DNA of 58,357 bases, filler included, from Globobulimina sp. (GCA_003354225.1; 6 parts of 6 records of this genome joined end to end with filler, not necessarily neighbours in it), one strand, 5' to 3'. Positions 2,187-56,610 are shown, counted from the first letter of the whole stretch. Numbers and translations: made by a program. Notes: generated by a model from the sequence alone, not told the origin.

Positions 2187-3676
2187 TTAAAATAAACCAA
2201 AATCTGTATCAAATGACAAAGTTCCTGAATCAGATTTTTGTTCTCTTGAATAGGTTTCAAAATATTGAAATATAATTGAGACAGCTAATAATATTCCAGT
2301 GCCCGATCCTATGGCGCCCATAAAATCCGCAAATATGGATAATGCGCCAATACACATACCACCCAATGCCGCAGCAGTTGGTATATATCGATATAATATT
2401 TTAACAACGGATTGTTCCCTATAGCCTTTAATGACTAATCCTTGTTTCTCTAATTGTCGTGCAACATCACGTGGCGATCCGCCAGAGATCTCAATCCAAA
2501 CCACACTGAATAATGCACAGCTTATTAATATAAACAAGACATAAACAATGGAATGCAATGGGTCCGTCACCACTTCTTGCATCGATCTCGGCGGTGACAC
2601 AAAATAAGCTAAACCGCCAACAGGTACATACTGTCCATGTGCATTGGTCCGCCAATCCCCAAATAAACGAACAAAGAAATTCTTACTGTATCGACGATGT
2701 AATAATTGAGAGAAAAAATATAAATTTGACACCAATGCAGTTTGTAATATCACCGGGATATTACTGGTATAAAATAATTTGATCGGATAGGTTTGATTTG
2801 AAATACCGCGCGCTTTCACATGTTTTAATGGTAAATCAACTCGGAATCCTTGAACATAAATCACCACTAAAAAGACAATAATTGTTGCCATTAAATTGGT
2901 TAAATTGGGTAAGTTTTTACGATAAAAGGCCTCTCGCAATGCACTAAATTTATTATTTCGTGTAATTAATAAATAAAAAAATGCAATAATGGCACCTTCA
3001 AACTCAGGGCCACCGCCTAAATTAATAGTGGTCGGCGAGAATGCTCTCCACACAATATTTTCACAGATATTTGTGGCAATAAATAAGGAAATGCCACTGC
3101 CCATTCCATAGCCTTTTTGCAACACTTCATCCAATAATAAGACAATAAGGCCAGCCATGAATAATTGGATAATGATTAAGATGCAATTGCCTAATCCCAA
3201 TGTGCGCCAATCGCCATACATGCCACTGAATACATACAATATGGCTTCTGCTAAAGTTATAAATAAACCTAATAATTTCTGTGCGCATGCATACAATTGA
3301 CGCTCTTTTGGGTCTTCAACGTTGACAGATATTTGTTTTGTGCCTGCCAATAATTGTAATACTAATCCGGATGTTACTATTGGTGATATACCTAACTCCA
3401 TTAAAGTGCCTCTGTTGGACGCTAAAACCACACGGATCCAATACAATGGATCTGCATGATCTGAAGGACGGATTCCATATAATGGGATTTGACAACATAC
3501 TAAAAACACTACCAGTGTTATAGCGGTCCATGCTAATTTAACTCGGAATGGCACTCGTTTATCTATTTTATTTATTTAGTTTTTTAAATTGGTATGATTT
3601 GGTAGAGTAAAATACCTGGTGGTTCTACCTCAGGTACAATACGTAGGAATGGTTCTAAATATTTTAAAATTCCCAT
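2187..3676 (-). CDS. SEC61A: Protein translocon Sec61 alpha subunit (2 exons)
   Basis: Conserved [30 protein letters not shown] and [13 protein letters not shown]. Exon 1 3676-3616 ([20 protein letters not shown]) is spliced via a 53-nt GT-AG intron 3615-3563 to [10 protein letters not shown]. Confidence 0.97.
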
Positions 3677-9761: not shown

Positions 9762-9861
9762 NNNNNNNNNNNNNNNNNNNNNNNNNNNNNNNNNNNNNNN
9801 NNNNNTTAATTAATTAANNNNNNNNNNNNNNNNNNNNNNNNNNNNNNNNNNNNNNNNNNNN
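9762..9861. other. Artificial contig linker
   Basis: 44 N + TTAATTAATTAA (stops in all six frames) + 44 N. Confidence 0.99.
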
Positions 9862-19601: not shown

Positions 19602-19701
19602 NNNNNNNNNNNNNNNNNNNNNNNNNNNNNNNNNNNNNNNNNNNNTTAATTAATTAANNNNNNNNNNNNNNNNNNNNNNNNNNNNNNNNNNNNNNNNNNN
19701 N
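19602..19701. other. Artificial contig linker
   Basis: N44-TTAATTAATTAA-N44. Confidence 0.99.
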
Positions 19702-21073: not shown

Positions 21074-21159
21074 CTTTTTATAAAGCATACACAAAGTTTT
21101 TTCTGAGCTTCTGATAATTTATGATTTAACCTTTTTCGGAAATTTCGACTTTGTATCGT

Positions 21160-23469
21160 ATGGCACGTATCCAATCCACTTTTGACTTGAAGGCGAGTTT
21201 ATCAGTTTCTAGATGTCATTACATTCGCTCAGATTGCATTCATAAGAGGTATGTGTTCAAATGTTTGCATGTGATATCGATAAAATTAATTACATTCTTT
21301 GTCAGATATTTGAGTGTGGCACGCAATGATGACAGCAAGAGACACAGATTACGTTTAAGACATAATCATGACATTGGAAGTTATATTAAAGCAATATCAA
21401 AATGTGGTAATAATGAGAACCGCGCATTAAAAATATTCTCAACCATAATTGATTGGAATTTATCACCAGATTTACATACATTTAATGCATTAATTAATGT
21501 AGCATCAAAAGCACAAAATTTGTCATTATGTTGGGATTTATTAAATAAAATGAGATTAAAATATCAAATATATCCAAATCATGAGACATATCTTGTTTTA
21601 TTTGATACAATGTTAAAACACAAGCAATATAATGACATACTAAACGAATTTGAAGATATTGTTCAAGAATACAAATATATTCACCCCGATCATTCTCTGT
21701 TGTTATTGACAAGCATCAATCAAATATTACCAATAACAATCATTTCATGCGGTAAATTGAATAAAATTGATCTGGCAAAGCAATTATTCAACCAATGGTA
21801 TAATAATGAGAACAATAATAACAATGCGATTATCAACTCCATAATATCTGTCTTAGCGACTGATAATGTCAATGATGCAATAATATTTTTTAAGGATGTT
21901 ATTTTGAATAAAAATAATAAATTTATGTATAGTGATAATAGAGCGTATATATCATTGTTACATTCATCTGTCGACAAAGAAGAAATATATGAAATGATAT
22001 TGAAGAATAACAATGGCAATAATAATTTATTAGGGCTTGATATATTTAATATGATGTTAAAATACTACAATAAAAATAAGAATTGGTGTGGATCAATAAA
22101 AATTTGGCAGCACATTCAGTTTTATAAAACAAAGCCAGATTCAATGAGTCATATTTTTTATATACAATCATTAGTCCATTCAAATAGGGACAAAAAAGAA
22201 ATTGAAATGGAAATAGAGGCAATAATGAAGGATCGGAGTGAGATAATTAACGAATTGTTAGCAAAATGTATGATTTGGGCAATGATTGAAATTGGATTAG
22301 ATCCAAATAATATTTTTCTAGATTTTAAATATAAATTATTGATATTACCAAATATTTCATTATATAATGAATTATTATACTTTTCGATAAAACAGTTGGA
22401 TTATAAACAAGCATTGGACATTTTGGATGAAATTAAGAAAAGCAATTTAAAATTAAATACACAAACCTTTAACACATTAATTTATGGAGTAAGTAAATTG
22501 AATGATATTGATTTGATTGACGAGTTATTACAAGAAATGAATAAAGCACAATGCCCTATGAATGAATATACATATCTTTATTTATTAAGCCTTTATGCAA
22601 AAAATGGCGATATTCAAATGTGTAATTATTATTTAAATCAAATTCAAAACAATCACAATGCGTATCCACATTTAATTAATTGCTATGCCAATTATTTCTC
22701 ATTGGATAATAATAACAATACAGGCAATAATAATGAGTTTGAATTTAATCAATGTTTAATTTATTGGAATAAATTAAAATCATTTAACAAAGCAAATCTA
22801 TTGAGCTATATATTGATGCTAAAATGTTTAAAAAATTATACTCGAAATATTGAACAGCACCATAAAATATTGAATTTTACCATAAACCTATTTGAGAATG
22901 AATTTTTAAAATTATTTAAAACAAATGATAATAATATAAATAACAGTAATAATATGCGAGTGGCCTTCAATTTATTGTTAGATATTTTCTATGAAATAAA
23001 TGAGATTGAATTGGGTTTAAAATATTTTGTTTTAGCTGAATCGGTTGGAATATATAGTACAAAGAAAACAAATTATAAAATAGATATCCATGCAATGACA
23101 AGATACCCAGCAATATTTTCAGTTTTATATTTTTTAAAATCATTAAAACAAATATATGATACTAATCATAATGAAAAGTGGAATGAAAAACAATATGAAA
23201 TTATAACTGGTGTTGGCATGACTTCAATTGATTGGATTCCTGTTTTAAAACCAATTATTTTGGATTTATTAAATAACAAACTATCAAAGGCGATAACATA
23301 TCATATTCCAAGTTATAACCAAGGTGTAATTCTTTTAGATCCTCATTCTTTGAAAACATATTTCAAAACAAACCAATCAATAAAACTCAAATTGGACAAA
23401 ATTGAGATGAAAACAAAACAAAACAACTCATCCAACATTCAAACAGAAAATCACAATTTGCACATTTAG
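21160..23469 (+). CDS. PPR protein with C-terminal SMR domain
   Basis: PPR repeats (PDLHTFNALINV, NTQTFNTLIYG); SMR motifs IDIHAMT, IITGVG and NQGVI. Confidence 0.82.
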   Translation: MARIQSTFDLKASLSVSRCHYIRSDCIHKRYVFKCLHVISIKLITFFVRYLSVARNDDSKRHRLRLRHNHDIGSYIKAISKCGNNENRALKIFSTIIDWNLSPDLHTFNALINVASKAQNLSLCWDLLNKMRLKYQIYPNHETYLVLFDTMLKHKQYNDILNEFEDIVQEYKYIHPDHSLLLLTSINQILPITIISCGKLNKIDLAKQLFNQWYNNENNNNNAIINSIISVLATDNVNDAIIFFKDVILNKNNKFMYSDNRAYISLLHSSVDKEEIYEMILKNNNGNNNLLGLDIFNMMLKYYNKNKNWCGSIKIWQHIQFYKTKPDSMSHIFYIQSLVHSNRDKKEIEMEIEAIMKDRSEIINELLAKCMIWAMIEIGLDPNNIFLDFKYKLLILPNISLYNELLYFSIKQLDYKQALDILDEIKKSNLKLNTQTFNTLIYGVSKLNDIDLIDELLQEMNKAQCPMNEYTYLYLLSLYAKNGDIQMCNYYLNQIQNNHNAYPHLINCYANYFSLDNNNNTGNNNEFEFNQCLIYWNKLKSFNKANLLSYILMLKCLKNYTRNIEQHHKILNFTINLFENEFLKLFKTNDNNINNSNNMRVAFNLLLDIFYEINEIELGLKYFVLAESVGIYSTKKTNYKIDIHAMTRYPAIFSVLYFLKSLKQIYDTNHNEKWNEKQYEIITGVGMTSIDWIPVLKPIILDLLNNKLSKAITYHIPSYNQGVILLDPHSLKTYFKTNQSIKLKLDKIEMKTKQNNSSNIQTENHNLHI

Positions 23470-27201: not shown

Positions 27202-29367
27202 TTATTTAGGTTTTGAAGAAGATTTATGTTTGTGTTTTTTGTGATGTTTATCTTTTCTGTCTTTTTTTTTATTTTTCTCTTTTTGTGCTTTTCTTTTCTT
27301 TTTTTTTGTAATTTTAATCCATTGTTTTTTATGATATTGATCTAAAGCCGTATACATCATATGGCGCACTCCGAACTTTGTTTTGATCGATTGTTCAAAC
27401 TCAAAACTTAAATCAAACTTATCACCATGCATTATTTCATCCTCGTCATGCATTTCTTTAAAATACGCGTGTTTTAAGGAATCCTGCGCAGAAATACGAT
27501 CACCGGGATCCAATGCTAATAATTTATACAATAAATCCGTACAATTCTCCAAATCTGCCTCCGTACAATTATTCTCATCAAATTTATGTTTAATCATTTT
27601 TCGAATATTTTTGCCATTATGCTTTGGCAATTTGATCACCCAATTCCTGGCCTGGTCATTTAAAATCCATTCAGTCGATTTGGGCGTGCCCATCACATCA
27701 AATATCTGTTGTAGCTGATCCAAATAATTTGCGCCGGGAAACAACGGTCTCCGTAATATCATCTCCGCCAAAATGCAGCCCACGCCCCAAATATCCATTT
27801 TTTCGTCGTAACGACCGCCACTACACATCACCTCTGGCGATCTATACCACCGCGTACAGACATATTCAGTGGCTTTGGCATTTTCAGGATTATCGGAATT
27901 CTCCTTTCCTAACACACCGCGCGCTAAGCCAAAATCTATGATCTTTACGTCACAATCACTGCCATTCAGCAATATATTTTCGGGCTTAATGTCGCGATGA
28001 ATCACGCCGGACTCATGAATAAAGGCCAAACCTCGCAATACCTGATACGTTAAATATTGGTAATGTAAGTTGGATAATTTCTGTTTACTGGTAATTATTT
28101 TACACAAATTACTCTCCAATAAAGGCATTACAATATATACATCTTCAAAGGTTTGAATCTCAGAGACAATCGGCGGCAAACTATCATAGATCTCAATTAA
28201 ATCGGGATGCCGAAATCGATTATAATGTAATAATAATTTGATTTCTCGCAATATCCTGCGCGCATCGCGTATATCATCAAATATATGTTTATTTTTTTTG
28301 ATTGCCACTCGTTTTTTAGTCCGCTCATCGATGGCCTCACACACCACGGCGTACGCTCCGCTCCCTATCAATCGAATGGGTTTGTAATACTCATACAGCT
28401 CAAATATCTCATTCTTGATTCGAAACTTACATTTCTTATCTGCCAAAATCATGGACTTCTCCATCTCCTCCTTCTCCCGCTCTTTCTCCCTCTCTTTGGA
28501 TTCTTTGCTGTGCTTTTTCTTGCTGGCACTGCCATGGTCGCTGTTGGCCTTATTGCGCAATTTTAGATCGACATGAGACGCCGATTTACGATTCATTCGG
28601 TCCCGATTATAATCGGCTTGCTCTTCAGGATTGGCCTCTGATTTGTTGCGCTGCATTCGTCGATCCCTGCCATTGTCGCCTGGTTTCAGTGTGTTTGGTT
28701 TCTGTGACCGCGACCTGACCGGTGCCTGCATACTGTGTCGTTTTAGGTGGCTGTTATCCTTTGCTTTCATATGACTGCCACGTTTGGGTGGCGCTCTTAT
28801 CCCACTCTCTCTGTCTCGCTCTCTGTCTCTGACCCGGTCCCTGTCTCCGCCACTTGTTTTGTTATTATTTTGTGACGACGATCTCTTACGCATTTGTTTG
28901 TTGCTTGCTTTGATTTTTCCGTTGCTTGTCTCTTTATTTTTGTTTTTATTTTTGTTTTTGTCTTTGTCTTTTTTCGATTTCTTTTTCTTAGACGATTTTC
29001 TTTCTGTGTTCTATGTATATAACACATGCGCGCAAATTCGCATATTTTTACAGGTTTTCTATAAATATTACCTGTGATTTTGGGGGTTTTGGTGGTTTTG
29101 GTAGTTTTGGTAGTTTGTGAGATGGAGGCTTAGGCGGTATGTTTTTGTTTGATTTTTTTATATTTTGAAATTTCGCTTTGAATGAACTTAAATTAGTTTT
29201 GGAGGCACTTTTTTTGTGCGGCACATCATTATCATATTGTTTGTTATCGTCATCCTCATAGTTTATAGAGCCACTGCGTCCAAATAACTCTTTGCCTTTG
29301 GATAAGAGCCCTTTCCCACTAAACAGCGACGAGCCTTTTTTATTCAATGAATCTGAGCCGGATTTCT
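27202..29367 (-). CDS. MAP kinase (TEY) with long basic N-terminal extension; 5' truncated
   Basis: GSGAYAVV, HRDIKPEN, DFGLAR and TEYVCTRWYRSPE; intron 29071-29011 links an upstream exon that is open to the contig edge. Confidence 0.93.
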
Positions 29368-29467
29368 NNNNNNNNNNNNNNNNNNNNNNNNNNNNNNNNN
29401 NNNNNNNNNNNTTAATTAATTAANNNNNNNNNNNNNNNNNNNNNNNNNNNNNNNNNNNNNNNNNNNN
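29368..29467. other. Artificial contig linker
   Basis: N44-TTAATTAATTAA-N44. Confidence 0.99.
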
Positions 29468-30913
29468 TTTATTATTTCTGTGAGCCGAAGTGTGTATGTT
29501 TTGGGCGAAACGGGTATCAATGTATTGACCATGTCTGTGATTGCTGTGTATAAAGAAGACAGCGAGAATACATTTCGCTTAATTTTGTTGACGGAGTCCT
29601 CTGATTATTTACAATTAGCGCGCAGCAGTTCTGATTTATATTTATTCGAACCAAGCGATGGTGGTACAATTTCCAAAGGTTCCTTCACTGCAAAGTCCGA
29701 TGCGGTGACAAAAGACGAACAGATTACTGGCGCCATTGCAGGCTGCTTGAATAACAAAGCATTTATTTGTAGTCAATTATGGGAGATTACGGCCGAAAAT
29801 GTAGAGTGTGCTGAAAATGAGGATGGGATTAATTTCAGTGGGCGGTATGCATTGCAATTTGAGACTTCGTGCAGAGCGCAGCCGGATATCTCTGCGGATT
29901 TAGCCACTCATTGCGCGGATTGGTTGGCTTTGCATCCAGATATTGATGGGCCTGAACCTGTGACATTGTATGCCACATTGACATGGAAAGACGAAATATG
30001 CGATCCTCAATTATTTGAAACGCAGTTTGGCGCAGAAATGCAATTTTATACAGATAGCGGTTACAGTGTTGAAGCGGGTAATACATTGTATGAAGTTGGC
30101 GTAGATCCTATTTATGTGAAAATCACCACAAATTATCCGCAAGATACGTATGAAATTTTCGATACGGAGTTGATTAATGTATGGATCTGTACCTTTGACC
30201 CAACGTATTCTGTGGATTTGGACGAGTTTACCGGCGGCTGTTTTGATACAAATCGCGATGACACTGGTTATGTGTATAATATTTATAAAAGCGATAACCC
30301 ATTGATCGAAGAGGAAGGCTTTGTGTTGGGCGGGGTGGATGGTTCCGGTCATCCCAGTTTGGATGGTTCGGCAGTAACGCGAGTGTTGGAATTTTATTTT
30401 AAAGTTCCGCCTAAAATCCAAAGGGATACATTATGGGTTCATGCTCAAATTGACGTAGCATTAACCAATGGGAATAGGAGAAGATTGGCGGCCAATGCTG
30501 GAGCAATTCCAGCAAATGAAATATCAAATCAAATGCAACATTTTGTGGATAATATTGCGGTGGGCCATGGAAGAGGTAATAAGCCACCACCACAACAGCC
30601 ATTTTATCAACGACCAAATTATCAACAACCGCAGCAAGTAAATTATCCAAATTATGGACCAGCTGCAGCTGCACCGTCATCATTTGTGGTGTCATTATCA
30701 TCGCCGTGGGTTATTGCGATTGGAGGTTTGTTAGCAGTGATATTGGTGTTTAATATCGTGTTTATGTGTTATATGAATTGTAGAGGAAGAGGGCGAGGAA
30801 TTGTAGGAAGAGCTTCGTTGAATAGAAGACGAAGAAGTGGCTATACATCGGTGAAAAATGTGGATTCGGAGGATTTTAATGATTCGGAAGTAAATGCTAT
30901 TAATGTCGAGTAG
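29468..30913 (+). CDS. Type I membrane protein with ZP-C-like domain and RRRL site; 5' truncated
   Basis: Cys-containing acidic ectodomain, RRRL at 30476-30487, Q/P/Y-rich linker, TM helix and short tail. Confidence 0.7.
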   Translation, partial: FIISVSRSVYVLGETGINVLTMSVIAVYKEDSENTFRLILLTESSDYLQLARSSSDLYLFEPSDGGTISKGSFTAKSDAVTKDEQITGAIAGCLNNKAFICSQLWEITAENVECAENEDGINFSGRYALQFETSCRAQPDISADLATHCADWLALHPDIDGPEPVTLYATLTWKDEICDPQLFETQFGAEMQFYTDSGYSVEAGNTLYEVGVDPIYVKITTNYPQDTYEIFDTELINVWICTFDPTYSVDLDEFTGGCFDTNRDDTGYVYNIYKSDNPLIEEEGFVLGGVDGSGHPSLDGSAVTRVLEFYFKVPPKIQRDTLWVHAQIDVALTNGNRRRLAANAGAIPANEISNQMQHFVDNIAVGHGRGNKPPPQQPFYQRPNYQQPQQVNYPNYGPAAAAPSSFVVSLSSPWVIAIGGLLAVILVFNIVFMCYMNCRGRGRGIVGRASLNRRRRSGYTSVKNVDSEDFNDSEVNAINVE

Positions 30914-31336
30914 ATTAAAATATATTTTTTTTTGTACCTTCTCCAAAATAAAATAAAACGCTTATACCAAAATATATGTTTCTTTTTTGTTTGTTTCTTT
31001 TTTGTTTAAATAGTATTATTTTTTAATTTTATGTACAATCGATACTTTCATAGTGACACTCATTCAATATAAACGAGCTCGGGAATTGTACATAAAATCA
31101 CATGACTGCAGCCTTTTTTTTTTAACCAACGCCTCAGTGCCTACTCAGGTACCATTAGATAACACCCCTAGGCCTCGATTTGCAGCACAGGGAACAACAT
31201 AATGCGATTCTAAAATTTCACAATATACAATATTATTTAATTAATCACAAAAAAACACAAAGAAACATTGCATGCATCTGACGGTAGTTATTGTGTGCTA
31301 TATTAATACAAAAAAAAAATTAAAAATAAACACATA

Positions 31337-34055
31337 TTAGTCATATACTTCAAATCCATCATCATTCACATTCACATTGCCATTATCAATTTGTTGATCC
31401 TCTTCCTCTTCCTCGGCAGACCCATCATCACCATCTGAGCTTGAGGCTGAGGCAGAGGCAGAGGCAGAACTGGAAGCACTCGATCCATTGTCCTCCTCAT
31501 CCTCGTCCTCATCCTCATTACTGTCACTATTCCGCCACGCAGTCTCATCCTCGTCCTCATTGCCATCACTCTCGTCGTCATCTCGTGTAAAAGTAAAAGA
31601 ATTAAATTTTAATAAATATTTTGTTTTATTTCTATGCGTAGAATGATGTCCATGCGTATTGTCAATGGAATATATGGGCATATCTGTGAATTCCTGATCA
31701 AAGTTATTCGTCTGATCTTCATTTAATTTCGGTGTAAAAGGCGGTTTCAATTTTCTGTCATATAACAAGTTCCAATCAATCGATTTAAAGAAAATATGTC
31801 GCTTTATTTGCTGTGCGCCCTTTAAATGGGCAAAAGACTTTTTTTTCGGGTCGTTTTGATATTTATTTGGATTGGAAGATTGGTACGAACCCAACCTTTT
31901 TTTCCAATTCCTTTGCATTAATAAGGTCAATATATTCACGGCAGAGTCACTGAAATAGTTTGGAAAACGCAGTTTGCTGTGTAATATCTTCTCAAACAAG
32001 CGATCTCTGTCGCGGCTATAAAAAGGCGGCATTCCGGTCAACATCTCATACAATAACGCCCCTAAAGACCACCAATCCGCTGGCTTTCCGTGGCCACATC
32101 GACGTAATATCTCTGGCGCCAAATATTCCGGCGTACCGCAAAAAGAATGCGCCAATAAGCCCTCCTCTTCGTTAATATTCTCCTTCGACAGCCCGAAATC
32201 GGTCAACTTTATATGGCCGCCCGCGTCCAACAACACATTCTCCGGCTTCAAGTCGCGATAAATGATGTTCATCGAATGCAAATATTCCAATGCCAACGCA
32301 ATGCTCGCCGCATAAAACCGCGCCCTGTCTTCCTTAAACCGGCCGGCTTTGCCCAAATGGAAAAATAACTCGCCGCCGCCACAATAATCCAACACCAAAA
32401 ACAATTTCGTCTCTGTTTGAAACGCATAGTACAATGACACGATGAATGGATGGCTCACAAAGCCCAACACCCGGCGCTCAGTCCGCGTATGTTCGATTTG
32501 GTTGCGTTTGATCACATTTTCTTTCTTCAAGATTTTCATGGCATAAATTTGATTTTCATTATCCACTTTTTTGACTTGCAATACTTTGCCAAACGCGCCC
32601 TTTCCAACCACTTTTAGCAAGGTAAAGTCAGACAAAGTGGGCGCTTTCTTATCATTGCCATGCTCGCCCTGCGCCAGTTTGAGCTGCGCTTTTTTGCTTT
32701 TATTTTCCAGCTCTTTCTGCTGGATCGGATTCATATTATTCTCTGCGGCATGCACGCCGCCAATGCGTATGATGCTATTGGCCTCTTTCTTGAAGATCCA
32801 TCGAAACTGCACAAAGGAGGACAGTTCAGGCGAGACCATCAGCAATGGATCGTCCACAATGACCCGCAGCCATATTTGCAACGACACGCGCATATGTTTC
32901 AAAAATGGCGACTCGCTGTCAAAGACGCTGCGATTCATCTTAGGATGCGATAGGTTGATGTTTGAGGGCGAGGACCCGGATGGAGCAGCATTGTGTGTAT
33001 GTGAGTGTGGCACGGATTTGTTCAGCACCAGCGGCAGCGGTTGCAATTTGGCTATTTTTTTCACTTTGCCTGCGGTTAAGTCGTCCGTTAATGGCAAACT
33101 ATTGGAGGAGCCCAGTGGGAACAGCGAGACCTGCGTATGTTTTGAGTGCAAGGATGGGATGTTTGTATAAATGGTTTTGTATATTATCAGATACCGGCTT
33201 TGGAGGCGTGTCTTGTGGCTTATTGTTGCGTAAATGTTGCATTTGTCGTTGTTGTAATAATAATTGTTGCTCGTGTTGTATTTGCCGGATATGTTTGATT
33301 TGTTTCATTTGAAGCATCAATTGTTGTTCCTGTCGCTTTTGAACCATAATTTGTTGTTGGTGATATTGATAAATTTGTTTGTAAACGTGGCGCGGCGAAT
33401 ATTTGCGGTTATGTTTATCCATATTAGTCTCTATTTTGTTGGCCGCTTCCTGCTGGAAATATAAATAAAATAAACCTAAGGGTAATAAGGGAGGCACTTC
33501 TATTTGTTTTTTCTTCTTCGCATTGCTTTCATCGATTTGTTGCAAGACACTGTATTTTGCTTTTAATTTGTTGTGTAACTGAATGAAATCACATAGGGTT
33601 TTATACACAGTCCACATTTGCTGTTGATATTGCACTGTAATTTCAAATTTGAGCGAGGAGTTTGCATGGAATATAGCCGAACGTTGGAATATAGGCCGTG
33701 TCATATCGATGGCGTTTGGTTTGAAGGGGGAGTTTAACGCAGAGGAACTTTGGGCTTTTATACCGTTTTTTAACGCATTGAGCTGTTTATTTGTGTTTGT
33801 TTTTGCTTTTGCTTTTTGTTTGGGTTTGGCTTTGGATTTTGGAGGTTTTTTTTTGGGTTTGGCTTTGGATTTTGATTTAGATCGATGTGCTGAATTATTT
33901 CTATGGTTCGACGATGATATATGTTTGGAGGTTGTATGATGCTTTGAAGGCGGATCATATTTGGTGGATGGTATGGAAATGGTCAGTCTATGTTTTGGTT
34001 TGTTAGTTTCTGCTTTCTTGGGACCGAATAGTTTATTGCCTAGAAACTTAAACAT
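31337..34055 (-). CDS. PX-domain AGC kinase (SGK/Akt-like), 2 exons
   Basis: PX-like WTVYKTLCDFIQLHNKL and LQIWLRVIVDDPLL; GKGAFGKV, YRDLKPEN, SFCGTPEYLAPE, NFDQEFT and hydrophobic motif FNSFTF; intron 33194-33131. Confidence 0.9.
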
Positions 34056-39130: not shown

Positions 39131-39230
39131 NNNNNNNNNNNNNNNNNNNNNNNNNNNNNNNNNNNNNNNNNNNNTTAATTAATTAANNNNNNNNNNNNNN
39201 NNNNNNNNNNNNNNNNNNNNNNNNNNNNNN
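39131..39230. other. Artificial contig linker
   Basis: N44-TTAATTAATTAA-N44. Confidence 0.99.
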
Positions 39231-48796: not shown

Positions 48797-48896
48797 NNNN
48801 NNNNNNNNNNNNNNNNNNNNNNNNNNNNNNNNNNNNNNNNTTAATTAATTAANNNNNNNNNNNNNNNNNNNNNNNNNNNNNNNNNNNNNNNNNNNN
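48797..48896. other. Artificial contig linker
   Basis: N44-TTAATTAATTAA-N44. Confidence 0.99.
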
Positions 48897-50456
48897 AAAT
48901 CATTTTTAAATGTCCAACAGATAAAAAATGCCAATGAAGAAACTGTAACGCTACAAATTGAATGTTTAACTGCATTGCATGACTTTTTTGAAACAGAAGA
49001 ACGACGGACGGAATTTCTGCAAAGCAAAACTGAGAAAAATACAAATAAACATATCGCCAAAGAGAAAATTATCAACGAAGAAGAAAGCAGCGATATTGAA
49101 TCCGATGCGGAGTTAAGTGATGAACAAGAAATGAAAGAAGAGACTGGAAACCACCGCGATGTGGCAGGTATTCGTGGGGGATATGTCTCGACCGATACAG
49201 GCAATTTAATCGAATTTATTAATACCATATCTTGCTCCATCACTGTGCTCTGTTTGTCGTCGTCTGATCAGGTCAGGAATAAATGTTGTGAGATATTATT
49301 AGATTGGACCGCTTCTTGCTGGGTCAATCCAATCGAGTCTCTAAAAGAAATCATCTCATTTTGTTTGGATCCAACCGATTTCTATCATAAAACTTGCGAC
49401 ATTGCCTATATTGCATTAAGTAAAATTATTGAACGAACACCGAACTTATTTCATATGAATTGTATTCATGGCATTGTGCAATGTTTTAAATTGTACCATT
49501 CCTCATTAGATTATACATTCATTGATGTGGATGAAAAGAATCCAATCATAAATACAATAATTCCGCAAAATGTGCCTAAATTATTTGGTGTGTTGGAGGA
49601 AATGAATAAAAGTAAACAGCAACAAGTTTTATGTGCAATTTGTCGATCGATAATAAGTTATATTGATTTTGGTGTTTGTAAAAAAAAAATTATTTCCAAA
49701 AAGAATTATTTGCAGATTCCAATGTTTGTGACATATTTATGTCATTTTTTATGTGCTATGCCGTTTGAAACGTATACGCCAAGTCAGCCATATGCGGTTA
49801 TTCAATGTTTAGATAATATTTTAAAAAATAATATTACGCATTTAACGGCAAATATAAGCAATAAAATGAAGATATTGAATGAGAACATATCAAATAAAAA
49901 AGAGATTTTAAGCAATGTACGAGCTTTATATGAATATTTATGTCATGGTTTAATGTGTTTAATAATATATCAATTCAGAGAGTTTTGGACGAAATTATAT
50001 AATTTAAGTGATCAACATATATATAATTATAAATTAACTGCAAATAAAAAAAATAAAGATAAAAATTTTAAAACCAAAAAACAACAAAATGGTGAGACCC
50101 AAATGTTATTTATTATTGATATAAAAGGTAAAAAAAAAATGATCAAAGACTTGCAAAGTTTATATCAGCTCTATTTTATTGAAAAACAAATTCGTTTGAA
50201 TAAAAATAATAAGACAAAAAGACATAATACGCGATCAGGTAAAAAAGAAGAGAAATATAACATAGCTCCAGTTTTAATTAAGATTGAAAAGGAATTTATG
50301 AAAATGGCAAATGAATATGTTGATGAAATGGCAAATGAATCGACACAAACTGATTCAGAAAGAAATTCTAGCGACGATATTGACAGTGATAACGAGAATG
50401 ATCTCGATATTGATATGATTGATGTTGAAAAGCACCAAAAGAAGAAAAAAAGATAA
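48897..50456 (+). CDS. NIPBL: Cohesin loader NIPBL/Scc2 C-terminal part; 5' truncated
   Basis: WVNPIESLKEIISFCLDP and LCAMPFET...PYAVIQCLD resemble Nipped-B_C motifs (LVHPxxCxPxLIAxxxDP; LAxFPYxTxxEP). Confidence 0.65.
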   Translation, partial: KSFLNVQQIKNANEETVTLQIECLTALHDFFETEERRTEFLQSKTEKNTNKHIAKEKIINEEESSDIESDAELSDEQEMKEETGNHRDVAGIRGGYVSTDTGNLIEFINTISCSITVLCLSSSDQVRNKCCEILLDWTASCWVNPIESLKEIISFCLDPTDFYHKTCDIAYIALSKIIERTPNLFHMNCIHGIVQCFKLYHSSLDYTFIDVDEKNPIINTIIPQNVPKLFGVLEEMNKSKQQQVLCAICRSIISYIDFGVCKKKIISKKNYLQIPMFVTYLCHFLCAMPFETYTPSQPYAVIQCLDNILKNNITHLTANISNKMKILNENISNKKEILSNVRALYEYLCHGLMCLIIYQFREFWTKLYNLSDQHIYNYKLTANKKNKDKNFKTKKQQNGETQMLFIIDIKGKKKMIKDLQSLYQLYFIEKQIRLNKNNKTKRHNTRSGKKEEKYNIAPVLIKIEKEFMKMANEYVDEMANESTQTDSERNSSDDIDSDNENDLDIDMIDVEKHQKKKKR

Positions 50457-50626: not shown

Positions 50627-53600
50627 TCAATAAAAATCATTGCAGGAACATTTACCGTCTTGAAAAGTATGAACGCGGTTTGCATCTGAAACAATTACTT
50701 TTCTGTTTGTGATGATTGAGATGAGTTTAATTGATTGGTGGCAATCATTACAAATTCTTAGATTCTTATTTATTACAATCTGATAATCATTTGCTGTTTT
50801 CAACAATGCATAGACCAATGCTAATTTTTCACTGTGTCGCAATAATTCATATTCTTTCTCCGAATCCGTGTTTAGCTCTTTTGTGATGAAACTAAAATCG
50901 TGTTTGAATGCATATTCTTGTTTTAATTGTTCCCATAATTCGTGCAGTTTCTCATCAATTAACTCTGACTCTCTTTTACTAAAATCCCTTTTATATTTAT
51001 TGCCTGCTTCGAATCTGTACAAAGTGCCATAAATATCTATCTCGGATATTCCTTTTGTTTTTGTCCAACCTCTCAATTTCATCTCTTTCCGAATCATTTC
51101 GACTTTATCGAATTCCTGATATGCGCCATAAATATGTGATAATAATATGGAGGCTGCTCCTAATTTATCCGCATATTTGTGGCCAACAAATCTTTGTTTC
51201 ATTTGATTGAAAACAGTTTCTGCCATTTCCTTATTCTTATATTTGCGACATCCGTTCAACAATGACATCCACACAGAATAAGGCAGCAATAATATATCAT
51301 TCTCATCCATTATAACATCAAATGCTTGCTCCAAAAACCCATTTCGCGCAAAGCAATCAACCAACGCATTTATAGTATTTGCAGTATAATTTTGTGGCGA
51401 ATGTTTTATTTCACTTTGCCATAAATATTGTGCCTGCTCCACATTGCCACTGTGACTGTACGCATTGAGTAAAGATGTATAAATCTTATCATCTGCTTTT
51501 AAACCAACTCCATTCTTCATTCTATCAAACAGCTCCTCCACTTTCTGCAAATCTCCATTGCGGCCAAACGCATGAATGATACTGTTGAAAATATCAATGT
51601 CTTTCAGCTCATTAAAGTTAAATATTTCCAGACAAATATCCAACATTCCACATTTGCCGTACATATGAATCAAATTAATTTGTATCGACCGGTCATTCAA
51701 CATATTAATGTCCATCTTATTATGTATTTTCTTTCCAAAGTGATAAGCTGAGGATTGACTGCACGCTTTGAATAAAATAACATGTGATATAATATCTGCA
51801 GATAGCATGTTGTCATAATATTTTTTAAATAACTCAATGCATTGTAAATTATCTCCATTTTCAAAATAAGCAGTCATCATTGCATTAATACAAATAATAT
51901 CTCGCTCCGTCTCTCCAATGCAACCAAATATTTCTTTTGCTTTCTTAATATCTCCCAAGTTTCCATAAAAGTCAATCAGTGTACATTTGAGTTGAAGAGA
52001 TGGATATTTATTATTTATATTTTTAATGTTGGATATGATTTCTATGCCTTTCTGCTGCCACGAATCATTTCTATTTTTCATATGTATGCAGGCCTTCAAA
52101 GCCAATATTTGCGAGACATCATTTTCTGCATTTTCTAGTTTAAATTCCTCGTACAATGCCAGTGCTTTTTTGCAATAACCATTGTTTATATAGGCTCTCA
52201 TCAAACAATTTATACTTTCTACATTCTTCTCCTTCTCAGCAATACCATCAAAAACTGCTTCTGCACATAAAATATGCCCCATATTTCCAAAAGCTTTGAT
52301 AGCAATCAAATGGGTAATAATGGTCGCTTCCATTTTATCCATACCCTTAATATCTGCATACAAATCGAGGCATTTTCCATCCATTTTATGGTTACAATAG
52401 GCAGTCATCATACAATTCACAGTTTGAATATTAATGCATTTATTTTTATTTTTAATTTGATTGAATACATTCAAAGCTTTATTAATGTCATTCAAAGGAT
52501 GTCCGTAAAAATGAATCAATGTGTTTTGCAGTTGAACATGATGCTCAATATTGCGATCATTAATTTTCCTTTTAATGATATCATTTCCTGTCAATATATC
52601 ATCCGTATTACTGCAACATTTAAGTGCCAACAATATGGATATATCATCCATCAAATCTGTTTCTTGATATTTACAATACACTTTCAACGCTTCTTTATAT
52701 GAATTGTTTTGGATCAAAGCTTGCATCATATTATTAATGCTCACATTATCTTTATTTTCAAGATTGGTAAATGAGTTTATGGCTTTCTCAATCTCTCCAA
52801 AATGGCCATAACCAGCAATCAATGTATTATTCAATTCAATGCTTGCAATATTTGTAATATTTTTAACAATCTGCTTGATATTGATGGCATCATTTGTATT
52901 AATACACATTTTGAGCAATAATATGTGTGAGACATCATCATGAATTCTTTTGTATTTGTTATACAAAGACAGTGCATCTTCAAATCGTTTATTTTCATTA
53001 TAAACAGAAATCATACAATTTATAATCTCAATCCTTTTATCCATTATATTTTCAAACAAATGCATGGCGGCACAAATGTCCTTATTATCACCATATGTTT
53101 TCAAAGCAATCATAAATGTCTGCGGATCACTTTGCAATTGTAAGTTGCCAATGTTTTCAAAGATATTTATTGATTCTTTCCACATTCCATTGTCAGAATA
53201 CATTCTCATCAAAGCATTCACACATTTTATGCTGGGATTTGCAATCTGATCGAATACATTTTGTGCTTTCGTGACTTGTTTAAAATGATTATAAAAATGA
53301 ATGGCTGTGTTGGCATAGTTTACATTGTTGCTTTTACGCAATGTCTTGTCCAGAATGTCTTGTCCCATTTGCATATTATTGGTGTTGGTACAGGCTTTGA
53401 CGGCCAATAAATGGGAGATATCATCTCTTAAATAGCTATATCGGGCATCTTTATATATTGATAGTGCCTCCATATAACAATGGTTATTTATATAAGTTTG
53501 GGTCATACAGTTGAGAGTAACCACACTTTTCTTGTTACTGTCAATATTGTTGAATATAAGCAATGCTTTGTCAGTTTGAGCAAAATGTCCATAAAAATTT

Positions 53601-54331
53601 ATCATACTGTTTAATAGCTCAATGCTGTGATTATTACTATTTGATGAGTTTACATTCAATTCTTTGATGAGTTGTTGCCCGAATCGATAATTATTGGTAA
53701 TAATACACGATTTGATGGCAAATAAATGGCAAATATCATTCATCTGCACAGTTTTATGAAAGTCTTGATATAAACGCAATGATTGTGGTTGACAGTTATT
53801 TTTAATGTAAGCTTTCATCATAGCACTGATTGTATTGACATTTTCCATATTCTTTGCCGGAATTGACTCAAACACATTTATTGCTGCTTGCATTTGATTG
53901 AAATGACTGTAAAAATTAATCAATGCATTTGGTACATAACTGTCATTTTCAATTAAGTGCAGTGGAACTTTCGAATGAATAATGCTTCCCTTTTCGAAAT
54001 TGTTTGATTCAATGCAACATCGCATCAATGATGGATAGGATACTTTGTCTGAACCTAAAATCATATGAATATCATCCCAAATTAGCCAGATTTTGTGTGC
54101 ATGTTTTGTGGATAAGCATAGTTTTACCATGGTATTGATCACAAAATGGTTTTTTGCTTCATTTGAAGGAATTTGGTGATAGATTCCAAATGCTTTTCCG
54201 ACAATCACTTGGTTTGTTTCTTTCCCGTCATTCTTTTGATACAAACTCTTTATTGATTGGGTTGCTGCTTTACAAGTTAAGAACGGTTTCGATATTGTTG
54301 AGAAGTGCACATGAAAACCTTTGGAAATCAT
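50627..54331 (-). CDS. PLS-like PPR protein with E and DYW deaminase domains
   Basis: More than 20 PPR repeats, E-like WMSLLNGCR...ILLSHIY, PG-box-like KTKGISEI, HSEKLA, KNLRICNDCH and HTFQDGKCSCNDFY; intronless. Confidence 0.93.
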   Translation of the reverse strand: MISKGFHVHFSTISKPFLTCKAATQSIKSLYQKNDGKETNQVIVGKAFGIYHQIPSNEAKNHFVINTMVKLCLSTKHAHKIWLIWDDIHMILGSDKVSYPSLMRCCIESNNFEKGSIIHSKVPLHLIENDSYVPNALINFYSHFNQMQAAINVFESIPAKNMENVNTISAMMKAYIKNNCQPQSLRLYQDFHKTVQMNDICHLFAIKSCIITNNYRFGQQLIKELNVNSSNSNNHSIELLNSMINFYGHFAQTDKALLIFNNIDSNKKSVVTLNCMTQTYINNHCYMEALSIYKDARYSYLRDDISHLLAVKACTNTNNMQMGQDILDKTLRKSNNVNYANTAIHFYNHFKQVTKAQNVFDQIANPSIKCVNALMRMYSDNGMWKESINIFENIGNLQLQSDPQTFMIALKTYGDNKDICAAMHLFENIMDKRIEIINCMISVYNENKRFEDALSLYNKYKRIHDDVSHILLLKMCINTNDAINIKQIVKNITNIASIELNNTLIAGYGHFGEIEKAINSFTNLENKDNVSINNMMQALIQNNSYKEALKVYCKYQETDLMDDISILLALKCCSNTDDILTGNDIIKRKINDRNIEHHVQLQNTLIHFYGHPLNDINKALNVFNQIKNKNKCINIQTVNCMMTAYCNHKMDGKCLDLYADIKGMDKMEATIITHLIAIKAFGNMGHILCAEAVFDGIAEKEKNVESINCLMRAYINNGYCKKALALYEEFKLENAENDVSQILALKACIHMKNRNDSWQQKGIEIISNIKNINNKYPSLQLKCTLIDFYGNLGDIKKAKEIFGCIGETERDIICINAMMTAYFENGDNLQCIELFKKYYDNMLSADIISHVILFKACSQSSAYHFGKKIHNKMDINMLNDRSIQINLIHMYGKCGMLDICLEIFNFNELKDIDIFNSIIHAFGRNGDLQKVEELFDRMKNGVGLKADDKIYTSLLNAYSHSGNVEQAQYLWQSEIKHSPQNYTANTINALVDCFARNGFLEQAFDVIMDENDILLLPYSVWMSLLNGCRKYKNKEMAETVFNQMKQRFVGHKYADKLGAASILLSHIYGAYQEFDKVEMIRKEMKLRGWTKTKGISEIDIYGTLYRFEAGNKYKRDFSKRESELIDEKLHELWEQLKQEYAFKHDFSFITKELNTDSEKEYELLRHSEKLALVYALLKTANDYQIVINKNLRICNDCHQSIKLISIITNRKVIVSDANRVHTFQDGKCSCNDFY

Positions 54332-54395: not shown

Positions 54396-55151
54396 TTACG
54401 CCACATAGATATTTTTTCTCTTCTTTCCTCGAATATCTGCATGAGGATCAAATTGAGCATTTTTGGTTTGGTTGGATATTTTTTCAATATTTCTTTTCGC
54501 AGTGAAGTTTTGAATATCGTTTGTAAATTCATACAACAGAGACACAGCCAAAATAATCAAGATATAGGCAATTGAATTAATAACAGACTCTCCAATCTTT
54601 GCAAACAATAAGAATCCTTTTAATAATAAAATCAGCGAAATAATGCTCATAAATATGATAAATTGCGCAGAAACAAAGGATAAAATAATTCCGACAAAAT
54701 AATTGTGTCTATGATTTGAATCATCATTTCCGAGCTTAGCGCATTTTGTAATCATTTTCACGAATCGATGTAAAAGAATTATGCCCAAAACAAACATAAC
54801 AGAGCATAATACGGTAATTTTATTGACACATTCTTCCGTTTCAGTTTCTGGTTTGACTGTGCAAATGAAAGAATATTTAGATATTAATGAAGATATCAGA
54901 ACCAGACAGGCCATATAACACAAAAATATCATTAATCTTCGTTTTTTTTTAAAAGGATGTTTGTAGTCCGATAAGAATATACCAAATAATACATTATTGT
55001 TTTTAATGTAGATCCATAAATCTGACACGATGTTTTCTGTCCAAATTACTCTGTCTGTGTCATACAATTCTTCTTCTTTCTCGCACGTGTTATTGACTGG
55101 TTGCTTCACAACAAATTTCGGTGATAATTTGGAGAGCACTTTGTTTAGCAT
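54396..55151 (-). CDS. Hypothetical membrane protein (about 4 TM)
   Basis: 251-aa ORF; NNVLFGIF...HPFKKKRRL motif followed by hydrophobic helices. Confidence 0.6.
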   Translation of the reverse strand: MLNKVLSKLSPKFVVKQPVNNTCEKEEELYDTDRVIWTENIVSDLWIYIKNNNVLFGIFLSDYKHPFKKKRRLMIFLCYMACLVLISSLISKYSFICTVKPETETEECVNKITVLCSVMFVLGIILLHRFVKMITKCAKLGNDDSNHRHNYFVGIILSFVSAQFIIFMSIISLILLLKGFLLFAKIGESVINSIAYILIILAVSLLYEFTNDIQNFTAKRNIEKISNQTKNAQFDPHADIRGKKRKNIYVA

Positions 55152-56610
55152 GGAAACAAAAAACAGTTTGGACTTACAGAGAAGTGGTGAGGTTGCATTA
55201 TCATTAGATGAGCGCCTGAAATCATTAAAAACAAGATATTGTACATTGCTATGTTTATTAGCATCAATTGATGTTTTGGGGTATTCATAATTCCTTCATT
55301 CATTTTAATGATTTATTGAATATATATAATTTGTATGACACAGACCATTTGCAACCGATGCACATTTACCATCATTGCCCAAAATGACATCGGATTTACA
55401 TACATCTCCGTCATGGATTCAATTTAGTGTTTTATCGTATTCCTTCATATTGGCAGTATCTTCATTATGCGGCGGTTATTTATCAGATAGATATGGTCGG
55501 AGATTAATAACCTTATTCGGTTTATTCTTTTTTATTTTGGGTGGATTTGCTTGTGTTGTGGCTCCAAATATTTTAGTATTAAATATCTCGCGTATTATCC
55601 AAGGATTTGGCGGTGGCATATCTTCCATTATAACATCAGCCGTTGCTCGGGATGTATTTTTAGCAAATGAACGCATGCAAATATTGGGCATCTTAGGAAC
55701 ATTACGACCATTCGCAATATGCATAGCACCGATATTTGGTGGTTGGATCGCTGAAACATTCAATTGGAGAATGGTATTTTTTGTAACATCCTCAGTTGCG
55801 TTGATTGTATGTCTTATGACATTTATATTATTGCCAGAGACGAAAGAAAAGTTTTTTATTGCTCGTCGCAGTGATATGGATAAAGCAAATATTAAAATTA
55901 ATATGACACAAATTCTATGCTCGGACTGCATTTTATTAACAGTGAGTTTTATGTTTGCATTCCGAATGATCGCAGTCTTTGTATTCTTAAATGAATTCCC
56001 GTTTGTTGTGGATGCTATTTATGCATTTAATGAATTTACATCGGGTGTGTTGATTGGCTGTGGTGCCTTTTGTTTGGTTATCGGGGCTTCTCTCAGTATT
56101 TTAATGGCTCGGTGCAACAAAGTATGCATAATGCGATTGTCTGCGAGTTGTGCTTTGCTGTCAAGCATATTATTAATAAGTGGGCCTATATGGAATCATT
56201 GGAAGGAAATAAAGAGTAAAAAAATCTCATTTGCTGATTTATACACATATAATGATTGGTACTTTATTGTGATCCCATTTTGTATTTTGACATTCAGCCA
56301 AGGATTAAATGGGCCGCCTTCCAATGTGATTGTGCTGGAACCCTATCCACATTGCGCTGCTTCAATAAGTTCAATCTTAGTATTTTGGAGACTGATCTTT
56401 CCAGCCATTGTTATGATTATTATTACGCAAATCGCCTCCATCTCAAATGAAAGCAACCACATTGCCGCACTTATTATAGTTCTAACTATGTCATTCATGG
56501 GACTCTTATGCTTCTTGCTCATGTTTTGTGGAACCTGTTTATCGAAACAAACTGTCGAGAAGAGAATGAATATTAATCCACAAAAATATTATGTAAAAGT
56601 TTTGAGTTAG
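55150..56610 (+). CDS. MFS drug:H+ antiporter (DHA1, Bcr/CflA-like), 2 exons
   Basis: Intron 55281-55343 restores LGPFATDAHLPSLP; motif A GYLSDRYGRR, RIIQGFGGG and APIFGGWI...WRMVF. Confidence 0.9.

Follow-up and report, generated by a model that had tools for sequence, protein, structure and literature searches.

An intact PPR-E-DYW protein of foraminiferal type, a candidate factor for mitochondrial C-to-U RNA editing

We have analysed a stretch of 58,357 nucleotides of DNA listed under Globobulimina sp. (GCA_003354225.1; six parts of the genome joined end to end with filler), referred to here as the window. An earlier note, made from the sequence, had proposed that the interval 50627..54331 encodes a protein of organellar RNA editing. 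This interval contains, on the minus strand, a complete gene for a protein of 1234 residues built from tandem pentatricopeptide repeat (PPR) motifs, the E1 and E2 motifs and a C-terminal DYW cytidine deaminase domain. The protein is best read as a nuclear-encoded foraminiferan member of the PLS class of PPR-E1-E2-DYW proteins that probably acts as a site-specific mitochondrial C-to-U editing factor, a reading to which we assign a probability of about 0.7. It is a new example of a type of protein that is already known, and editing is a well-founded prediction.

The protein and its domains

The coding sequence, taken from the list of open reading frames (ORFs) and their translation, is a single intronless ORF of 1234 codons without interruption, running from an ATG at 54331 to a TAA stop codon at 50627-50629. 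At the base composition of the window about 7.8% of random codons are stops, and the probability of 1234 stop-free codons arising by chance is ~3e-44. The reading frame is co-linear with those of two orthologues (see below), and its length agrees with the ~1230 residues estimated before.

Starting at the N terminus, the first 61 residues (54149..54331) resemble a presequence by a count of their composition, being rich in K and R and in S and T. The first 40 residues include six K or R, nine S or T and two D or E. The earliest acidic residue is at position 35, in agreement with the acid-free N terminus described in the earlier note. The chain then continues as the PPR array (residues 62-1017; 51281..54148), in which 28 PPR-like motifs of 31-41 residues follow each other in P-L-S order, with an S-like motif occupying the L position twice. 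Cutting the protein at the signature of the S motif reveals a super-repeat of ~100 residues. The array terminates with P2 (36 residues), L2 (36 residues) and S2. More than 20 triplet-patterned motifs had been claimed, and this hand-anchored parse bears that out; the Pfam families PPR (2.8e-47) and PPR_2 (1.4e-38) both match the protein.

Following S2 the chain forms E1 (residues 1018-1056; 51164..51280) and E2 (residues 1057-1091; 51059..51163). E1 is placed by the Pfam E_motif match at residues 1031-1098, by its alignment with the E part of 9kfx, a synthetic PPR-DYW protein, and by the structural model presented below. E2 is placed by Pfam, by alignment to 9kfx, by a hand parse and by the same model. 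The remaining 143 residues (1092-1234; 50630..51058) comprise the DYW domain, which is matched by structures in the PDB and by Foldseek. The Pfam family DYW_deaminase (PF14432) covers residues 1142-1234 with profile positions 2-93 of 93 (5.7e-30).

The catalytic and zinc-binding residues of this domain are complete. The HxE motif of zinc binding and proton shuttling is HSE (H1166, S1167 and E1168; 50828..50836). The CxxC of the catalytic zinc, followed by H, is found within CNDCH (C1194-H1198; 50738..50752). These align with the HSE and CxDCH of plant structures, and their H, E, C, C and H are invariant in an alignment of 34 sequences (A2). The putative second zinc site is present as H1198 together with the residues of H1221...C1228-S-C1230 (50642..50671); its members are invariant or nearly so in A2 and in a further alignment (A3), with H1221, C1228 and C1230 nearly invariant in A2 and invariant in A3. 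The chain ends in the tripeptide DFY instead of DYW (50630..50638). The HSE, CNDCH, H..CSC and DFY elements had each been pointed out before, and all are found.

The section from E1 to the C terminus aligns end to end with 9kfx (4.4e-33, from query residue 20 of 235). The DYW domain matches the plant factors OTP86 (7o4e; 1.6e-24) and DYW1 (7w86; 1.7e-20), with HSE, CxDCH and HxFxxGxCSC all aligned. Residues 880-1234 were modelled with AlphaFold2 from the 34-sequence alignment, with a mean predicted local distance difference test score of 93.4 and a predicted template modelling (TM) score of 0.88. The model superimposes on the RNA-bound synthetic protein (9kfx_A) with a TM-score of 0.88 and a root-mean-square deviation of 2.3 Å over 352 columns. 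In Foldseek the DYW part of the model gives target-normalised TM-scores of 0.85 with each of 7o4e_B and 7w86.

At the site of the PG box the window protein and both orthologues have K-G-I-S-E-I-D, compared with P-G-C-S-W-I-E in 9kfx; P-G is kept in five of the eight aligned relatives in A3. The DFY end is a variant of the DYW tripeptide and no ground for exclusion from the PPR-E-DYW class, because the tripeptide varies outside plants in a 2026 survey of DYW domains (PMC13386178). Tandem P-L-S PPR motifs, E1 and E2 and the HxE(x)nCxxC deaminase signature of PLS-class PPR-E-DYW factors are all present. Pfam, alignment with PDB structures and the structural model thus describe an intact PPR-E-DYW protein, as had been proposed. 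It is the product of the one DYW gene in the window, as judged by tblastn and by Pfam analysis of 30 other ORFs.

Relatives and the DYW tree

The exact protein is absent from a collection of 15 billion proteins. The nearest proteins are two unnamed environmental sequences, P0002 (71% identity over residues 880-1234) and P0003 (62%). Next comes a 563-residue fragment from Bolivina argentea, the closest named relative, which is 75-79% identical over its E and DYW part, followed by four proteins of Nonionella stella (40-43%). Apart from P0002, P0003 and the B. argentea fragment, the foraminiferal-type proteins reach 40-47%, compared with ~26-36% for plants. A Naegleria protein (P0028) is 32-36% identical and rotifer proteins are 35-41% identical. 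The B. argentea and N. stella relatives are present in the EukProt sets of these species, which we take to be the transcriptomes of PMC8153729; on this reading the family would be expressed.

P0002 and P0003 (1223 and 1226 residues) share the start methionine of the window protein and run co-linear with it through to the C-terminal residue, with identities of 61% and 51%, respectively, and the zinc ligands and catalytic glutamate are kept in all three proteins. Conservation is uneven along the repeats. At 20 P and S motifs the fifth residues are identical to those of the window protein in 95% of positions for P0002 and 90% for P0003, and the last residues in 75% and 70%; the corresponding values for the whole tract are only 57% and 46%. 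The putative specificity residues are thus better kept than the rest of the tract, which is the pattern that would be expected from a conserved RNA target.

A maximum-likelihood tree (LG+G4) was calculated from the last 150 residues of 50 proteins; it is unrooted, and its bootstrap was not fully settled. The DYW domain of the window protein falls within a clade of 15 rows (support 97/84) that comprises the window protein, the four N. stella proteins and 10 unnamed environmental rows. All 14 plant rows are excluded from this clade, and across the branch they are joined by Naegleria, rotifers and Soliformovum. A DYW phylogeny had been suggested in the earlier note as a check for horizontal transfer. 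It yields a separate, non-plant clade and, being unrooted, does not give a direction of transfer.

A HMMER scan of 1.84 billion representatives returned 2240 proteins at E <= 0.001. The clade shares three motifs: ISEID in the region of the PG box, (V/F)INKNLRIC (IVINKNLRIC) and (S/A)DxxR(V/I)HxF (VSDxNRVH). Among the best 150 of the 2240 (representatives at 50% identity), 11 carry at least two of the three. A terminal Y is found in 10 of the 10 complete foraminiferal-type representatives, and the other 139 of the best 150 end mostly in DYW (55) or DFW (27). By clade, shared motifs and terminal Y the window protein belongs to a recognisable foraminiferal-type DYW subfamily, defined here, of which it is the founding example.

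Searches of other collections reached more distant proteins. Among metagenome loci a single-protein query found no relative. An alignment query returned 24 loci at 30-51% identity, and among these the long matches were no closer than those to plants and rotifers. In the ESM Atlas only the rotifer and plant DYW clusters were found again, with bdelloid rotifers as the top feature-based neighbours (score 0.98).

Genomic context

The window is gene-dense eukaryotic nuclear DNA of ~31% guanine plus cytosine (GC). A Sec61alpha gene lies on the minus strand at 2187..3676, where exon 1 (3617-3676) and exon 2 (2187-3563), both located by tblastn, are separated by a GT..AG intron of 53 nt (3564-3616). 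The encoded protein is 98% identical to P0097, which clusters at 90% identity with EukProt entries of Ammonia sp., Elphidium margaritaceum, B. argentea and N. stella. From this identity to a cluster with four foraminiferal genera, the source is a foraminiferan, rotaliid-like by its relatives. The neighbour of the DYW gene on the plus strand (55150..56610) encodes an MFS transporter (Pfam MFS_1, 5.5e-38). Its sequence reads in phase through a putative GT..AG intron of 63 nt (55281-55343), in line with the intron-containing neighbour mentioned in the earlier note.

The DYW gene has a GC content of 0.320, with 0.325 at third codon positions (GC3). Its relative synonymous codon usage (RSCU) correlates with that of the other 22 ORFs with r = 0.85; the leave-one-out values of those ORFs are 0.39-0.94. 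The AT-rich codon usage that had been cited in favour of a native gene is thus evident. Together with Sec61alpha, the introns and a tree clade without plants, it upholds the claim that the gene is native to the protist: the gene belongs to the foraminiferan nuclear genome rather than to contaminating plant DNA. Short, near-identical pieces of it occur in contigs of two sequencing runs from two studies, covering 25 of 30 and 21 of 30 bins; these contigs are evidence of recurrence of the sequence only. Joints listed for them have sides of just 22-27 letters within the sequence of a repeat protein and carry no weight. No RNA run is among those listed as containing the stretch, which speaks neither for nor against expression. 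The contigs of one run have a 6-base in-frame deletion at 52004 with several substitutions nearby; these differences may mark an allele or a strain close to the source.

The spacer between the stop codon of the upstream gene and the ATG of the DYW gene is just 64 bases. Most other genes of the window appear as single long ORFs, which gives the impression of a genome with few introns and very little space between genes. A second PPR protein of 772 residues is encoded at 21151-23469 on the plus strand (PPR_2, 1.8e-23, and PPR_long). It is without E or DYW, is probably of the P type, and has no tblastn match to the PPR tract of the DYW protein at E <= 1e-3.

Other features of the window stand apart from these. 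A GC-richer block at 27202-33151 (0.37-0.43, compared with ~0.31 elsewhere) contains two protein kinase genes, which fit the codon usage of the window worst (RSCU r = 0.61 and 0.39; GC3 0.43 and 0.52). An ORF on the plus strand at 43718-44527 matches the TMEM151 family (1.7e-21), which is mainly found in animals. Pairs of N runs, each of 44 bases and 12 bases apart, are located at 9762-9861, 19602-19701, 29368-29467, 39131-39230 and 48797-48896. Their regular spacing of ~9.8 kb looks like an artefact of masking or scaffolding and not biology. The last pair truncates the 5' part of a Nipped-B-like gene at 48975-50456. Scans of the window for Rfam families and tRNA genes gave no matches.

Proposed function and its alternatives

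The presequence-like N terminus points to mitochondria. In the mechanism that we propose it would take the protein into the organelle, where the 28-motif array would bind one stretch of RNA of ~28 nt, base by base, through the fifth and last residues of its P and S motifs. E1 and E2 would set the DYW domain over a C located about four nt 3' of the base bound by the last (S2) motif. This C would be deaminated to U by the zinc site formed by H1166, C1194 and C1197, with E1168 as the proton shuttle. In the PPR code of fifth and last residues, N/D corresponds to U, N/S to C, N/N to C or U, and S/N to A. The pairs of the window protein are mostly N/D, N/N and N/S. Applied to the 20 P and S motifs the code gives U,Y,A,C,U,C,U,?,U,Y,U,Y,?,?,Y,?,U,?,U,?, so that the predicted target would be U- and pyrimidine-rich. 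The geometry follows the plant model, in which each motif binds one base and the DYW domain, an established deaminase in plants, acts on a C about four nt past the S2 base (bioRxiv 10.64898/2026.09.04.749523).

Several points weigh against this assignment. The mitochondrial address is read from amino-acid composition. The E_motif match (E 8.4e-6) scores 26.4 bits, 0.9 bit below the curated cut-off of 27.3. The motif borders were placed by hand and not with a dedicated motif finder, so that the positions taken as 'last' could be shifted by one residue. Six of the 20 P and S pairs have no assigned base (M/R, L/N, C/D, I/D and N/P) or are unsure (N/T). The DYW domain departs from the plant consensus in having KG and ISEID (CSWIE in plants), VSDxNRVH for VRDxNRFH, and the DFY end. 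Lastly, a study of foraminiferal mitochondrial genomes reports no C-to-U editing in its accessible passages, but it is based on DNA only (PMC10127745). Such genomes were published only in 2021-2023, from DNA, and the passages available note just a conserved cox1 frameshift in Miliolida (PMC10127745, PMC8589990).

Conceivably the protein binds mitochondrial RNA in a sequence-specific manner but has ceased to deaminate, serving instead in transcript stabilisation, processing or cleavage, or recruiting another enzyme. Some plant DYW proteins have non-editing roles, and the replacement of the PG-box proline and the DFY tripeptide could be taken as signs of such a role. Both elements are variable in non-plant DYW domains (PMC13386178). 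Loss of catalysis is unlikely, since all ligands are present and evidently constrained: the zinc ligands and catalytic glutamate are kept in the window protein and its orthologues and are invariant or nearly so across the 34 sequences. Moreover, the DYW part models confidently onto active-type structures, and paralogues of the same clade do carry PG. A deaminase of broader action, at many sites or converting A to I besides C to U, has a precedent in Diplonema PPRD1, where one PPR-DYW protein is needed for both types of edit at 110 sites (bioRxiv 10.64898/2026.09.04.749523). Both types also occur in the rhizarian paradinids, but the candidate for A-to-I editing there is an ADAR-like protein (PMC11946409). 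An activity like that of the diplonemid protein is quite improbable here because in foraminifera the canonical PLS proteins form a family, with at least four distinct Nonionella DYW proteins in the tree and 11 of the best 150 representatives. A model of one protein for one site also fits the array, which is long, of canonical PLS order and conserved in its specificity residues.

Targeting to stolen diatom plastids (kleptoplasts), with editing of plastid transcripts, had been offered in the earlier note as an alternative destination, and plant DYW proteins do act in plastids too. No need for C-to-U editing is known in diatom plastids, however, and the N terminus resembles a simple presequence. 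Relatives are present in the kleptoplastidic N. stella, yet the closest named relative is from B. argentea, a species without intact chloroplasts (PMC8153729). The suggestion is therefore not sustained, and we consider it less probable again than a broader deaminase. The accessible part of the same source mentions neither pentatricopeptide proteins nor RNA editing. Least probable of all is contamination by plant DNA or a recent transfer from a plant. The named hits are mostly plant proteins, and transfer from plants is often invoked for non-plant DYW genes (PMC11946409, PMC13386178). Against this, plant proteins reach only ~26-36% identity compared with 71%, 62% and 40-47% for foraminiferal-type proteins, the clade is without any of the 14 plant rows, codon usage and GC content match those of the neighbours, and a foraminiferal Sec61alpha lies 47 kb away in the window. 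Plant contamination was rejected on context, composition and phylogeny. An ancient transfer from plants is possible, the tree being unrooted.

The site-specific mitochondrial editing factor that we favour can be compared with known DYW systems. With the PLS-class factors of land plants (OTP86/At3g63370, 7o4e/7o4f; DYW1, 7w86; and the synthetic 9kfx) it shares a P-L-S array ending in P2-L2-S2, E1, E2 and a DYW domain with HxE, CxDCH and HxFxxGxCSC. It differs from them in its identity of ~30-36% over E and DYW, its long array of 28 motifs, its KG, VSDxNRVH and DFY elements, and its separate clade. The Heterolobosea (Naegleria gruberi and Acrasis kona) also have a nuclear multi-gene PPR-DYW family in a protist, with intact zinc ligands and presumed mitochondrial C-to-U editing, and their DYW-type PPR proteins accompany a few mitochondrial C-to-U sites. 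They belong to another supergroup, and Naegleria P0028 groups with rotifers in the tree and not with the foraminiferal clade. The bdelloid rotifers likewise have a large non-plant DYW family and are the top ESM Atlas neighbours, but at 35-41% identity they form a separate clade (100/100) next to Naegleria. Their DYW genes have been read as transfers from plants (PMC13386178).

The paradinids (Ascetosporea) are of the same supergroup, Rhizaria, and have PPR-DYW proteins with demonstrated mitochondrial C-to-U editing; unlike the window protein, their DYW domains were grouped with fungal ones and share with them a two-residue deletion (PMC11946409). In our tree, which is without paradinid sequences, a fungal/Protostelium-type group is split from that of the foraminiferal clade by a 100/100 branch. 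PPRD1 of the marine protist Diplonema papillatum is a PPR-DYW protein of the mitochondrion whose DYW catalytic core is canonical. It is single-copy, with an atypical PPR array, partner proteins and >100 C-to-U and A-to-I sites, whereas the foraminiferal protein is a family member with a canonical PLS array.

The published passages agree with the statement of the earlier note that DYW proteins are tied to organellar C-to-U editing and scattered outside plants. In Naegleria it was the presence of DYW-type PPR proteins that prompted the finding of mitochondrial C-to-U editing, and Physarum has 16 such proteins (PMC4758236). Further examples are known from Acrasis, Malawimonas californiana and Gefionella, and diplonemids have one copy (bioRxiv 10.64898/2026.09.04.749523). 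Several fungi carry them as well, and the paradinid proteins and editing were described in 2025 (PMC11946409). The 2026 survey counts DYW domains in Metazoa (1,666), Rhizaria (31), Discoba (22), Fungi (15), Alveolata (9), Haptista (3) and Amoebozoa (1) (PMC13386178). The earlier description of the system as undescribed is thus weakened. PPR-DYW proteins and editing are already on record in Rhizaria, as the paradinids and the 31 rhizarian domains show. A full-text literature search found, in the titles, abstracts and passages available, no work on DYW or PPR proteins or on C-to-U editing in foraminifera, although the survey's 31 rhizarian domains may already include foraminiferal ones.

A wider proposal is that foraminifera have their own expanded, Y-terminated PPR-E-DYW branch, whose members are conserved as orthologues across rotaliids, and that their mitochondria perform an as-yet-unreported, site-specific C-to-U editing of the plant type. 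This is more tentative, and we would give it slightly less than an even chance. The finding extends a pattern already established in Naegleria, Acrasis, Physarum, paradinids and diplonemids. If editing in foraminifera is real, their mitochondrial genes as read from DNA would disagree with the proteins made in a small number of codons. A conserved and intact DYW family predicts that some codons are corrected at the level of RNA, a correction that would matter for COI barcoding based on cDNA as well as for mitochondrial phylogenies and predicted proteins. The foraminiferal proteins would then constitute a third DYW lineage, rhizarian or deep eukaryotic and seemingly independent, with a bearing on whether editing is ancestral or transferred. 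A well-supported clade that is not nested within plants is also a contribution to the question of whether DYW editing is an old eukaryotic trait or spread by transfer from plants.

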